The notes below the pieces were generated by a model. That model ran no database searches and was not told the origin of the DNA. It saw nothing but the letters and a program-made list of their open reading frames with translations. A DNA stretch of 64,000 nt from Escherichia coli. GTDB lineage: Bacteria; Pseudomonadota; Gammaproteobacteria; Enterobacterales; Enterobacteriaceae. Below, piece after piece: positions 12,533 through 64,000 of the stretch. The first letter of the stretch is position 1. The number at the start of each line of letters is the position of its first letter. The DNA lies in NCBI RefSeq assembly GCF_016026235.1, contig NZ_CP065613.1; one strand, written 5' to 3'. A program made the position numbers and the translations under genes.

Positions 12533-12544
12533 CTTCTCTGTCTA

Positions 12545-12577
12545 TGAGAGCCGTTAAAACGACTCTCATAGATTTTA
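12545..12577. terminator. bidirectional hairpin between convergent qseC and ygiZ
   Basis: tctatgagag...ctctcataga perfect 10-bp stem, followed by ttttact. Confidence 0.6.
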
Positions 12578-12910
12578 CTAATAGCAAAATATAAACCGTC
12601 CCCAAAAAAGCCACCAACCACAAACCAGACAAATACCGAGCGAGAATACATATACCCAAAACTCGAACATTTCCCGCATAAAGAGTTTTCTTAAGATAAG
12701 AATAATAAGTGGCGTAAGAAGAAAAAATGCTGCAATCATTGCTTGCAATATACGATCTTCGCCTGAAACGGAAGGTATACTGCAAATATTGCCTCCCGAG
12801 TCAAGCATCCAGTCATACTTATTGAAAGCAAAAAAAGCATCTATTAACCAATAAGTAAGCATTATGTATAATAATGCTTCAAATATTGATAGTAGTTGTT
12901 TTTTTAACAT
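12578..12910 (-). CDS. ygiZ: inner membrane protein YgiZ (about three hydrophobic helices); candidate immunity protein for the upstream effector
   Basis: 110-aa hydrophobic ORF; ATG lies 6 nt after the stop of the upstream gene; A+T-rich like the two genes upstream. Confidence 0.8.
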   Translation of the reverse strand: MLKKQLLSIFEALLYIMLTYWLIDAFFAFNKYDWMLDSGGNICSIPSVSGEDRILQAMIAAFFLLTPLIILILRKLFMREMFEFWVYVFSLGICLVCGWWLFWGRFIFCY

Positions 12911-12916
12911 GTCTGA

Positions 12917-13627
12917 TTACTCATTAATCAATTTTTTGATATGTTCTCTAATCTCTAACAACCTCATACCATAAGAGATGAATTTATAATCATCTGTATC
13001 ACGCGCAGGCAAATTATTAATTAAATAAATAAAAAACCCCAAATCTCGTTCAACACCACGATTATATCTAATACCAGCCATAATATACTGCTCATTCGTC
13101 ATATACAGTGTTGCCGAAGAGGGATAATCAAAAAGGGCAAGATCTCTTAAATGAGTAGCAGCAATTTGAAACGTAAAATCATCTTCCATTAGGCATGTCG
13201 CTAACTCTAACTGATTTCTGGTAGTTAATTCTGAAGGGTCAAGACCTAGAGTAATCGCTGCGGTTCGTATTTGTATACCCATTGAGCCAAATGATGTTTT
13301 ATTTTCAGGCATATCTAACAATCCAATCATTCTTTTTGTTTCATATATCTGAAACTTATAATTTTCAGGCATACCTCCTGACTCAATCCAGGCCACACCG
13401 CCCAGTAACTCTGGACGAATCCCAGCGGCATATGCATGTTTAATTATTTTGTCCCTATTATATTGTACATATGCATCTTTATAAGCATTTAAATAATATA
13501 CTCCCGAACGGCGACGCGAATCATTTTTTCCTAACTTCCAGAGTAAAACGTCCATTTCATCCCATTTACGGAACTTAGTTTGTGGAATTGTACAATAGCT
13601 ATTTTTTATAGTGAGATCGCTTTTCAT
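12917..13627 (-). CDS. putative Hcp-associated effector with lytic-transglycosylase/lysozyme-like (GH23-like) motifs
   Basis: ORF track gives 12917..13654 with a TTG first codon overlapping hcp; ATG at 13627 (MKSDLTIKN...) sits 2 nt after the hcp stop. Motifs AWIESGG, GSMGIQI and AGIRYNRG resemble the ES / G-x-Q / YN-G signature of SLT-type muramidases (e.g. MltE QQESGGNPNA...GLMQL). A+T-rich; no signal peptide. Confidence 0.55.
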   Translation of the reverse strand: MKSDLTIKNSYCTIPQTKFRKWDEMDVLLWKLGKNDSRRRSGVYYLNAYKDAYVQYNRDKIIKHAYAAGIRPELLGGVAWIESGGMPENYKFQIYETKRMIGLLDMPENKTSFGSMGIQIRTAAITLGLDPSELTTRNQLELATCLMEDDFTFQIAATHLRDLALFDYPSSATLYMTNEQYIMAGIRYNRGVERDLGFFIYLINNLPARDTDDYKFISYGMRLLEIREHIKKLINE

Positions 13628-13629
13628 AT

Positions 13630-14109
13630 TTAAAAAACCCTTTCTTCCCAACAACTATATGATTCCGTACTCGCGATATGGTGCTTCCATGTTATATTTT
13701 TATAATTAAGAACAATAACCTCTTCCGGTTGATTACCCGCATGTGTAATTGAGTGTGGATAACAAGTCAGAATATTCGATAAATGTGCCCCTTGCAATTC
13801 AATTGTGTAAAACCTTTCAATACAACCGCCAGAATTAATTCTATAAAAATTAAATATAGCTGATAACTCTTCATTTTCAGAAAGAGCAGCATTTAATAAA
13901 GGGGAGGATTTATCTATTGGCTTGTAAAATTTTATGGGGTGATGCACTACATTATATTCTCGACTTAAAGAATGGTCGAACTGCAAAACAAAAATTTCAT
14001 CCACATGATTTATTTGATATTTATTACCAATAGATGCATACGAACCACAGCCCTCAGAGATCAAACCTTGTGTTTTCCCTTTAATTGATAAGTATATGAT
14101 ATTTGACAT
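13630..14109 (-). CDS. hcp: type VI secretion system tube protein Hcp (TssD family), orphan copy
   Basis: 159-aa ORF; IYLSIKGKTQGLISEG, IDKSSPLL and YKNITWKH match conserved Hcp blocks; GGAG Shine-Dalgarno 9 nt upstream; A+T-rich. Confidence 0.8.
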   Translation of the reverse strand: MSNIIYLSIKGKTQGLISEGCGSYASIGNKYQINHVDEIFVLQFDHSLSREYNVVHHPIKFYKPIDKSSPLLNAALSENEELSAIFNFYRINSGGCIERFYTIELQGAHLSNILTCYPHSITHAGNQPEEVIVLNYKNITWKHHIASTESYSCWEERVF

Positions 14110-14358
14110 ATATATTCTCCATGATTATTTTTTCCGAAAAGCTCCTGTATCATTTGCATAATACATCTCTCCTGTGGGAACTTATGGGAAGTTGATTTCA
14201 GTATTGTCATTTTCAGAAAATATTTATCCTGCATCGGTGAGTCAGAGCAAGATCAGACTTTTGCTAAATTCGCAAAAGACTTTGCACATTTTGCTAATTT
14301 CACCGTACCGCTCTGTGACGTACTATAGTCGGCAAACGTCTCACCTTGAGGTTAAAAA

Positions 14359-17835: not shown

Positions 17836-18662
17836 CAGTAGCCTTCTGAAGCGGTATCAGGTTGGAAACGTGTGTCCGCCAGGCGATGCACCTCGGTGGT
17901 CAGCGTGCCATCAGCATGTAACTCGAGAGTACGCCAGCCGGGCGCGATAGTATCCAGCGTAAAGTTGGAACAGTGCGGCTTAAACTGCACACAGGTCGAC
18001 GGCGTTGCCAGCAGGCGGCGACCGTTCCAGTCGAGATCCAGCTCCTGATGAATATGACCGCACAGCAAGTATTTGACGTGCGGAAACTTCGCCAGCACGG
18101 TATCCAGTTCGCCCGCGTTACGCAGACTGTGTTGATCGAGCCAACTACAACCCGCAGGTAGCGGATGATGATGCAGCAGCAGCAACGTATGGCGTTCTGG
18201 CGCATCGGCCAGTTTACGTTCCAGCCACTCAAGCTGAAACTCGCTCAGCTCACCGTGCGGCACGCCAAACACCTGGCTATCCAGCAACAGGATTTGCCAT
18301 TGCTCACCAATAAACACGCGCTTCGCCGGGGAGATACCCGCATCCTGTAACGCGCTGTACATCGCGGGCTGGAAATCGTGGTTGCCCGGCAGCCAGACGC
18401 AGGGCGCACGAAAACTTGCGATGCCTTCAGCGAAATGCTGATAGGCCGCAGAGGATTGATCCTGCGCTAAATCACCTGTCGCGACAATCAGGTCGAATTC
18501 GTGCTGGTGTGGACGAATCGCCTCCAGCACCGCCTGGTAGCTTTCCCAGGTGTTTACCCCTAACAGGGCTTCGTGCTTTTGTGCAAACAGGTGAGTATCG
18601 GTAATTTGTAAAATCCTGACTCTGGCCTCACCAGCCAGAGGAAGGGTTAACAGGCTTTCCAA
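17835..18662 (-). CDS. cpdA: 3',5'-cyclic AMP phosphodiesterase
   Basis: 275-aa ORF with metallophosphoesterase motifs (GDL, GNHD). Confidence 0.92.
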
Positions 18663-18686
18663 ATGGTGTCCTTAGGTTTCACGACG

Positions 18687-19109
18687 CTAGTAAACCGGAA
18701 TCGCCATCGCTCCATGTGCTAAACAGTATCGCAACCAGTCCGCTAAAAACTGGTTAATTTGATGCTTTTCGTCGCGTTGATGCAACTTTTTATTAGGATA
18801 ATCATACCGCGCTTTGAAGCGAAAAATCTGCTGGCTTGAACACACTTCAGCCACCATCGCGTCATGATACAGACGCACCGTCATTGACGGAAGGCTCCAG
18901 TAACTGATCGCGGGCGCAGTCTGTTCTATTGTCACCAGGGTAGTGTATCGGGTCGATTCCACAATCGTCAGCCGATATTGTGCGTTTGCCACCTGATAGC
19001 TTACAGTTTCGCCGGGTGCGTCATTGCGCGGTAACAAACGGCGCAATTGTGAAAAGTTCATCTCGCACAGGCGCATCATTTCAGGAAAGTCAGGTGTGTA
19101 ACGCTTCAT
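18687..19109 (-). CDS. yqiB: DUF1249 protein YqiB
   Basis: 140-aa ORF; synteny. Confidence 0.85.
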
Positions 19110-19739
19110 TTATACCCACTCATTTTTTAACGCTTGATGATGCAGCTGCAGCCATTGCAAAGCGATGACCGACGCTGCGTTGTCGATTTTCCCCTCTTCT
19201 ACCCACTGGTATGCCTGTTCCCGGCTTACCACATGAACGCGAATATCTTCGTTTTCATCAGCCAGACCGTGAATACCGCTTGCGGTTGTGGCGTCCACTT
19301 CGCCCACCATAATTGACGAACGCTCACTGGTGCCCCCCGGGCTTGCCAGGAAACTTAACACCGGTTTGGTCCGTTTGACTATCAGCCCCGCCTCTTCAAT
19401 CGCTTCGCGACGGGCAACATCTTCCACACTTTCACCCTCTTCAATCATCCCGGCAACCATCTCCAGTAGCCAGGGGGTTTCGCTGGTGTCGTACGCGGCA
19501 ATCCGAATCTGCTCAATCAGCACAACTTCATCACGCACTGGGTCAAAGGGTAGCAAGACTGCGGCGTGACCGCGCTCAAAAATTTCCCGCCGTACCTCAT
19601 GACTCATTTGCCCGTTGAATAGACGATGACGAAATCTATAAAGATCTAATGAAAAAAAGCCGCGATAAAGTGTTTCTCGTGCAATAATTTCTACATCGTT
19701 TTTGCCAAATGTAACGGGCAGGTTGTCTGGCTTAAGCAT
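19110..19739 (-). CDS. nudF: ADP-ribose pyrophosphatase (Nudix)
   Basis: 209-aa ORF with Nudix box [22 protein letters not shown]. Confidence 0.92.

Positions 19740-57416: not shown

Positions 57417-64000
<6,584 letters not shown>

Follow-up and report, generated by a model that had tools for sequence, protein, structure and literature searches.

An orphan hcp gene, a putative lysozyme-like effector gene and ygiZ as a candidate type VI secretion module between qseC and mdaB of Escherichia coli

This work concerns three genes that lie between qseC and mdaB in a 64-kb stretch of DNA from the Escherichia coli strain FDAARGOS_943 (contig NZ_CP065613.1; hereafter the window, meaning the whole 64,000 nucleotides that were analysed): an orphan hcp gene, a gene for a 236-amino-acid protein, and ygiZ. 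On the strength of sequence comparison and structure modelling, we consider it likely that they form an orphan module of a type VI secretion system (T6SS), in which Hcp would deliver a lysozyme-like effector of a distinct family and YgiZ would act as a membrane immunity protein, and that most E. coli later lost the module apart from ygiZ. A T6SS cargo effector-immunity cassette had already been proposed here in a first-pass annotation made from the letters alone, and the computational tests came out in favour of that proposal, as is seen in the identity of the Hcp, the fold of the effector, the position of its residue Glu82, and the adjacency across genera of the effector gene to a gene of Pfam family DUF2645, to which YgiZ belongs. 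What would be new is the effector family together with a new type of immunity protein.

The three genes are tightly packed and co-directional on the minus strand (Table 1), and the first-pass annotation had their coordinates and spacing exactly right. The hcp stop codon (13630-13632) is separated by 2 nt from the effector start codon at 13627 (TAA-AT-ATG), and the effector stop codon (12917-12919) by 6 nt from the ygiZ start codon at 12910 (TAA-TCAGAC-ATG). RefSeq annotates the same three genes and lists the effector open reading frame (ORF) as a 'hypothetical protein' of 236 amino acids with an ATG start. All of the motifs that had been quoted are present, namely YLSIKGKTQGLISEG, IDKSSPLL and YKNITWKH in Hcp and AWIESGG, GSMGIQI and AGIRYNRG in the effector ORF, and the G+C content, estimated by eye at roughly one-third, was computed to be 0.343 for the cassette (0.31-0.37 along its length) against 0.522 for the flanks. 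A 25-kb query from the window matched the record NZ_CP065615.1 of FDAARGOS_943 with 100.0% identity. According to the RefSeq annotation the rest of the window consists of core genes, and no further T6SS structural gene was found in it, as had been claimed.

The 159-amino-acid protein is, by its sequence, a bona fide Hcp/TssD. A hidden Markov model (HMM) search placed it far above the cut-off of TIGR03344 (198.3 bits against 58.9, E=7.6e-59, residues 1-157 on model positions 1-167), which confirms the family membership read from its motifs; PF05638 was matched at E=5.6e-19 and solved Hcp structures at E of about 1e-20. Its identity to the Hcp of the same length encoded in the T6SS cluster at the aspV tRNA site is 45-49%, with 49% in an ungapped alignment across all 159 residues, and it could therefore plausibly feed the aspV T6SS. 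Identity to the 172-amino-acid Hcp2B-type paralogue is 27%. Two previously named proteins were tried as counterparts of the orphan Hcp and rejected: the orphan 'Hcp3' of strain PCN033 is encoded by a 1,149-bp Hcp-ET gene, and Hcp2B of avian pathogenic E. coli (APEC) is the 172-amino-acid cluster paralogue.

Close relatives of the 236-amino-acid protein come only from Enterobacterales, and all of them are annotated as 'hypothetical'. When 1.8 billion representative proteins were searched with a profile, 374 relatives came up at E<=0.001. In an alignment of 65 sequences, Glu82, Gly85, Ser112, Gln119 and Gly191 are invariant, and Lys50, Thr111, Gly114, Arg187, Tyr188, Asn189, Tyr219 and Gly220 are nearly so; Glu82 lies within AWIESGG, and the further motifs are TSFGxxxxQ119 and R187-Y-N-R-G191. 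AlphaFold, supplied with this alignment, gave an all-helical model (mean predicted local distance difference test score, pLDDT, 93.5; predicted template modelling score, pTM, 0.90), while with just 25 aligned sequences the model was unusable (pLDDT 59). The nearest structures to the good model are those of the T6SS muramidase Tse3/Tge1, its best solved match, and of the lytic transglycosylases of glycoside hydrolase family 23 (GH23), and the lysozyme-like alpha-helical fold of the model can be superposed on GH23 enzymes. The family-profile alignment sets Glu82 on E64 of MltE (IAIESGGNP) and on E250 of Tse3 (ILAEQ), so that Glu82 is the putative catalytic Glu, equivalent to the catalytic residue of these two enzymes. 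The xMQ119 and R-Y-N-R-G191 motifs also resemble GLMQ and AYNxG, which we take to be the motifs of family-1 lytic transglycosylases. No hydrophobic segment fit for a signal peptide or a membrane helix is present in the effector.

In longer relatives, the effector domain stands at the C-terminus after PAAR, Rhs repeats or cores, WXG100, eCIS core, OmpA-like or PG_binding_1 domains. Among 66 such relatives, the eCIS core domain was found in 12, the OmpA-like domain in 5 and PG_binding_1 in 2-4, and the Pfam SLT model matched 9 at E<=0.1, which is weak, and 1 at E<=0.001. Neighbours in the AlphaFold DB include fusions with Rhs, PAAR and WXG100, and also proteins named 'Transglycosylase SLT domain-containing' in UniProt. 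The fusions to polymorphic-toxin parts, together with the missing export signal, therefore argue for an exported toxin rather than a housekeeping wall enzyme. Three natural variants (identifiers P0002, P0004 and P0005) were found: an in-frame Hcp-effector fusion of 325 amino acids in one metagenome; a form with a 20-amino-acid deletion between two MPEN repeats, comprising 86 member sequences with a representative named for O28ac,42:H7 E. coli; and a chimera with a signal-peptide-like N-terminus on one metagenome contig, which may be an assembly artefact. Ntox3, whose Pfam model matched up to 3 of the 66 relatives, was considered as a name for the domain and rejected, because in the one Rhs fusion scanned it did not lie on the effector domain. 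In PHROGs the effector matched just phrog_11932, a family of unknown function, at E=1.7e-29, and tblastn against 50,697 phage genomes found nothing. Phage_Mu_F or portal-like domains occur as fusion partners in some relatives.

YgiZ matches PF10840 (DUF2645) at E=3.9e-10 and shows three hydrophobic peaks. At 17 of 17 loci the effector gene is adjoined downstream by a DUF2645-type ORF; 15 of these are HMM-positive and the other two are three-helix ORFs of the same size in the same position. The partner is roughly 100-120 amino acids long with three predicted membrane helices, and a soluble periplasmic protein was never seen in its place. The hcp gene lies directly upstream of the effector gene at 14 loci, and one relative is fused to PAAR; in the latter, a DUF2645 ORF of 100 amino acids starts on the last base of the toxin stop codon. 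The hcp-effector-DUF2645 trio occurs on Serratia conjugative plasmids, on a Rahnella megaplasmid and on a Pectobacterium chromosome, where pagP and an EamA-family gene flank it. A further chromosomal trio (locus L008), between an ABC transporter gene and polB, has a three-helix third ORF of 109 amino acids with a weak DUF2645 match (hhalign probability 39%). Metagenomic effector relatives with 33-36% identity likewise have a DUF2645 gene next downstream. With the effector alone as the query and one genome per species, all 8 loci had hcp upstream and a DUF2645-type ORF downstream; in Buttiauxella gaviniae this ORF is shortened to 62 amino acids. Serratia sp. H1w carries two diverged full cassettes on different contigs, with effectors 57% and 63% identical to that of the window.

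The three proteins do not diverge at the same pace. Identities to the window proteins are 63, 56, 43 and 36% for the effector, 57-60% for Hcp, and 37, 33, 21 and 26% for YgiZ, which makes ygiZ the fastest-evolving of the three genes. This order, with YgiZ diverging more than the effector and Hcp, appears to be roughly that of known effector-immunity pairs. Linkage to hcp or PAAR and a conserved, faster-diverging small gene next door, as expected of a T6SS effector-immunity pair, were both found, and YgiZ, judging from this pairing, is a candidate immunity protein that most likely protects against the effector.

The basic residues of YgiZ, which lie at its N-terminus and in the stretch joining helices 2 and 3, suggest an N-in topology, which would put residues about 30-56 and the C-terminal tail in the periplasm. 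Cys43, in the putative periplasmic loop, and Cys109, at the C-terminus, are both present in 7 of 8 DUF2645 proteins and both absent from the remaining one; in this small sample, their co-occurrence suggests a disulfide and is consistent with a periplasmic position of both segments. The loop motif NKYDWM is conserved in the closer DUF2645 homologues.

The cassette is probably not a recent arrival in E. coli. Citrobacter werkmanii and two Pseudocitrobacter genomes carry it at the same mdaB-qseC site, with effector and QseC identities to the window of 73% and 78% in C. werkmanii and of 65-67% and 68% in Pseudocitrobacter. Therefore, the cassette is probably ancestral at this site and the K-12 state derived, and a recent insertion relative to K-12 was rejected. 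Against strain UTI89, the synonymous divergence (Ks) of the cassette genes is 0.078-0.088 and that of mdaB is 0.092, and the ratio of nonsynonymous to synonymous divergence (Ka/Ks) is 0.10 for the effector gene, 0.15 for hcp and 0.30 for ygiZ; despite its low G+C content, the cassette thus seems to have descended vertically within E. coli under purifying selection. The first-pass annotation had also weighed membership of a prophage or other mobile element, and an origin of this kind in E. coli was rejected on the strength of the core-gene flanks and of a Ks equal to that of mdaB.

The locus is polymorphic across 5,426 complete E. coli genomes. The full cassette was found in 1,261 genomes (23%) and ygiZ in 4,598 (85%); ygiZ stands alone in about 3,337 (61%), and about 828 (15%) have neither. 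The O121 strain RM8352 is 100% identical to the window over 2 kb. The arrangement described for K-12 at first pass, with ygiZ beside mdaB and no hcp, was seen in BL21, which carries the K-12-type allele: the segment lost there covers the first 7 ygiZ codons, the effector gene, hcp and 68 bp upstream, and YgiZ residues 4-8 differ as a result of the replacement sequence. In O157:H7, window positions 12533-14254 are absent altogether. The K-12-type allele rejoins the window at 14178 and the O157-type allele at 14255. The widespread ygiZ-only state fits retention as an orphan immunity gene, and ygiZ of K-12 is probably such a gene left over from the cassette. A fourth state of the locus was noticed in E. 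coli H9Ecoli, where IS1B lies beside mdaB and the whole run of genes from ygiV to ygiZ, qseBC among them, is missing. The RM8352 assembly (NZ_CP028110.1) follows the K-12 order in its tor-put and aspV regions but has the qseC region in the opposite orientation, reflecting either a large chromosomal inversion or an assembly artefact.

From sequence we infer a mechanism that runs from Hcp-lumen loading and T6SS export through a peptidoglycan substrate and toxicity to immunity. The effector would be made in the cytoplasm without a signal peptide and bound inside the lumen of its dedicated Hcp hexamer, a mode of loading that is established for Hcp1-dependent effectors of Pseudomonas aeruginosa. 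Rings of the orphan Hcp would join the tube of the aspV-island T6SS, and the effector would be fired into the periplasm of neighbouring Gram-negative cells, where its lysozyme-like domain would cut the glycan strands of peptidoglycan with Glu82 as the single acid catalyst. Tse3/Tge1 and lytic transglycosylases cut glycan with a single acid catalyst. YgiZ, as a three-helix inner-membrane protein whose periplasmic loop of ~27 residues is probably disulfide-linked to the C-terminal tail, would neutralise at the inner membrane the effector arriving from sister cells. Historically, the module would be old at this locus, and most E. coli would have lost hcp and the effector gene while keeping ygiZ as an orphan immunity gene. 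The A+T-rich operon may be subject to H-NS-type silencing.

Among known systems, Tse3/Tsi3 of P. aeruginosa (Tge1/Tgi1), together with the Tge1-3 families of T6SS peptidoglycan glycoside hydrolase effectors, offers the nearest comparison. The catalytic Glu250 of Tse3 aligns with Glu82, and both proteins would be cargo effectors without a signal peptide that are encoded beside a protective gene; Tse3 needs Hcp for its export. However, the effector is just 14% identical to Tse3 (profile E about 0.1, 113 aligned residues), has 236 amino acids instead of about 408, lacks the extra N-terminal domain of Tse3, and comes with an hcp gene of its own. Unlike the known Tge immunity proteins, which are soluble and periplasmic, the partner of the effector is a predicted three-helix membrane protein. 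With the family-1 GH23 enzymes (Slt70, MltE/EmtA, MltC, MltF) the effector shares AWIES (IAIES in MltE), a conserved GLMQ-like xMQ119 and AYNxG-like RYNRG, and, as in single-Glu enzymes, the lack of a second invariant acidic residue. It differs from them in having neither a Pfam SLT match nor an export signal, in the use of its domain as a toxin module, and in an extra conserved N-terminal W-x3-D-x3-W segment and extra C-terminal helices. Thus, the effector is not demonstrably a member of Tge1 or of Pfam SLT, since its similarity to both is at or below threshold and its partner appears to be of a different kind.

The gene order follows the logic of the Hcp-linked cargo pairs of Enterobacterales such as Tae4/Tai4, where a small effector gene and then an immunity gene come after hcp, in many cases away from the main T6SS cluster. 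The putative activity of the effector, glycan cleavage, differs from the amidase activity and the pore formation of the Tae4/Tai4 and Ssp6-like pairs. In the Hcp-ET fused effectors, reportedly described by Ma et al. in 2017, Hcp and effector are one polypeptide, and here they are separate ORFs divided by a TAA stop and 2 nt. Researchers have found that Ssp6-like effectors occur beside orphan Hcp genes and that Sip6, an immunity protein, is small, membrane-associated and predicted to have membrane helices (PMC6889166). YgiZ is likewise small with predicted membrane helices; by description, however, the fold of our effector is enzymatic, and YgiZ is larger, with three helices against two in the ~67-residue Sip6. 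In its proposed function the cassette resembles Tge/Tgi and other Hcp-linked wall-degrading pairs (PMC4832377). Wall-degrading effectors that are linked to Hcp and encoded beside an immunity gene are a well-established theme, and no new principle is proposed. In a library that is not exhaustive, the literature search turned up no paper that describes the cassette or DUF2645 or that treats ygiZ as a T6SS gene.

Several observations weigh against a T6SS-delivered wall glycosidase with YgiZ as its immunity protein. The 236-amino-acid protein matches no Pfam model even at E<=10, the SLT model PF01464 included, and no NCBIfam model, which agrees with the inability of the first-pass annotation to place it in a named family. 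Of the GH23-like reading made at that stage, the fold and the position of the catalytic Glu stood and the Pfam SLT match did not, and we therefore call the effector GH23-like by fold and motifs, not a demonstrated member of that family. A Foldseek search of the PDB gave the same ranking of Tse3 and GH23 enzymes with a best E=0.016, all E-values being >0.001 and TM-scores 0.4-0.55, and the family profile reached solved GH23 enzymes and Tse3 among PDB sequences just at E of about 0.1. A polytopic membrane protein with a tiny putative periplasmic surface would be an unusual glycosidase inhibitor. Cassette and T6SS do not always coincide, as the cassette is missing from O157:H7, which has a T6SS, and K-12 keeps ygiZ without one. 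Elsewhere in the genome of the source strain, a full T6SS cluster was located at the aspV tRNA site, which is however not intact: tssC is split by the insertion sequence (IS) IS21 (istA/istB, record 2666968-2670587). Since this is the only T6SS located there (the whole genome was not scanned), delivery in the source strain is doubtful, and the module probably serves there, at most, as protection. The related O121 strain RM8352 has an IS3 insertion in tssG and a frameshifted tssK.

The aspV cluster of the source strain comprises tssB, tssC, tssE, tssF, tssG, tagH, tssJ, tssK, tssL, tssH, vasI, tssA, tssM, a VasL-domain gene and hcp, and it is flanked by a divergent hcp-vgrG effector island. UTI89 carries both the cassette and an aspV T6SS cluster of the same type that is annotated as intact. 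The metV tRNA island site was empty in RM8352. As to other features of these islands, the vgrG/Tle1 effector island of the source strain contains copies of IS600 and IS1A, and the strain carries many IS insertions. In the aspV island of RM8352 (positions 17931-19334 of the retrieved locus), directly downstream of the cluster hcp, there is a 915-bp 'hypothetical' pseudogene with an internal stop, followed by ykfM; K-12 presumably keeps ykfM beside aspV without a T6SS. The ykfM locus may be a second case of a lost Hcp-linked effector whose partner was kept as an orphan.

A broader reading, which we would put slightly above even, takes DUF2645/YgiZ as a new class of polytopic inner-membrane immunity proteins against a glycosidase-like toxin shared by T6SS, T7SS-type (WXG100), eCIS-core and phage proteins, with E. 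coli polymorphic for the pair; in its strongest form, the toxin would attack lipid-linked or nascent glycan at the membrane, not the sacculus. Membrane-embedded immunity proteins usually accompany membrane-acting effectors, for example in Ssp6/Sip6. Because wall glycosidases do not usually have a partner embedded in the membrane, we kept the alternative that the target of the effector is lipid II or nascent uncross-linked glycan at the outer surface of the inner membrane rather than the mature sacculus. It would account for a partner that is always a three-helix membrane protein and never a soluble periplasmic one, for which the Ssp6/Sip6 pairing offers a membrane-level example (PMC6889166). 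However, the relatives fused to PG_binding_1 and OmpA-like peptidoglycan-binding domains point to the wall, the closest structures all act on polymeric peptidoglycan, and no membrane-binding segment is visible in the effector; we regard this alternative as unlikely. About equally unlikely, in our opinion, is that the source strain, and perhaps many other carriers, can no longer deploy the cassette and keep it as a silent relic, with ygiZ alone mattering as protection and with hcp and the effector gene due to disappear. The broken T6SS genes of the source strain and RM8352 speak for it, and so do the existence of effector deletion and fusion variants and the fact that hcp and the effector gene have already been lost from 77% of E. 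coli genomes. The Ka/Ks values of 0.10 and 0.15 for the effector gene and hcp, on the other hand, indicate that function was maintained after the lineages of the source strain and UTI89 split, the IS insertions in the T6SS are strain-specific, and the reading frames are intact both in the window and in UTI89, whose T6SS is annotated as intact.

A relic would also fit the finding that K-12-type ygiZ has its own BglJ-RcsB-activated promoter in its upstream region (PMC3950696). The same regulated promoter, and the presence of ygiZ in 85% of E. coli genomes, could mean instead that YgiZ is a conserved membrane protein with a cellular role of its own and merely an operon neighbour of the effector. 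An evolution study is said to have linked ygiZ to solvent tolerance, which would count in the same direction. This explanation seems improbable to us, because a DUF2645 gene adjoins the toxin domain whatever the genus, replicon type or delivery module, because identity falls faster in YgiZ than in the effector (37-21% against 63-36%), and because ygiZ is missing from 15% of E. coli genomes and is therefore dispensable. One could further imagine that the effector is a wall-remodelling enzyme that aids assembly of the T6SS or another envelope machine, with YgiZ as its anchor or regulator. Dedicated lytic transglycosylases do aid envelope-spanning machines, EtgA and MltE are among the structural neighbours, and gene linkage alone fits a toxin and an enzyme alike. 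Nevertheless, we hold this to be very improbable: an effector without a signal peptide or lipobox has no route into the periplasm of the cell that makes it, its domain also forms the C-terminus of polymorphic toxins of the PAAR, Rhs and WXG100 kinds, and ygiZ survives alone in genomes without a T6SS, such as K-12 and BL21. We therefore continue to favour the orphan T6SS module with YgiZ as the candidate immunity protein.

The remaining features of the locus are included in Table 1. In the divergent hcp-mdaB intergenic region, the promoter scan gave just weak sigma-70-like matches, fewer than in shuffled sequence, and the promoter was not located. The inverted repeat between the convergent qseC and ygiZ is possibly a bidirectional terminator; for want of a T-run it was passed over by the terminator scan. 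Elsewhere in the window, ISEc60 (IS4-like) interrupts ebgA at 60456-61646 in the source strain, a position mapped from the RefSeq annotation (window coordinate = 4448280 minus record coordinate), and Flag-2 lateral flagellar genes at another place in the source genome are broken by this IS type too.

Table 1. Positions in the window of the cassette genes and associated features
Feature	Position	Strand	Remarks
hcp/tssD, orphan, 159 aa	13630..14109	-	TIGR03344, PF05638
candidate T6SS cargo effector, 236 aa, 27.4 kDa	12917..13627	-	predicted lysozyme-like GH23-type fold; Glu82, Q119, R187-Y-N-R-G191 motifs
ygiZ (DUF2645), 110 aa, three predicted membrane helices	12578..12910	-	PF10840; candidate immunity protein
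hcp-mdaB divergent intergenic region	14110..14358	-	presumed cassette promoter site; GGAG ribosome-binding site 8 nt before hcp ATG
imperfect 12-bp inverted repeat, 6-nt loop	12542..12571		between convergent qseC and ygiZ; reverse self-match in blastn
segment absent from K-12/BL21-type genomes	12889..14177		160 bp unrelated sequence instead (blastn against BL21)

If the favoured reading is true, it would give a testable function to the Pfam family DUF2645 and to ygiZ, which 85% of complete E. coli genomes carry. With the effector, the T6SS peptidoglycan glycosidases would gain a fourth family, distinct in sequence and without a Pfam or NCBIfam model, and the use of a tiny three-helix membrane protein against a wall hydrolase would be an unusual mode of immunity. 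E. coli would then be divided into 23% of genomes that are armed and immune, 61% that are immune only and 15% that are susceptible, and this three-state polymorphism at one site of the core genome would predict who kills whom among E. coli lineages. UTI89-type carriers, which we take to be the extraintestinal pathogenic group of phylogroup B2, would be expected to kill O157:H7, which is without ygiZ, and this would bear on colonisation resistance in the gut.

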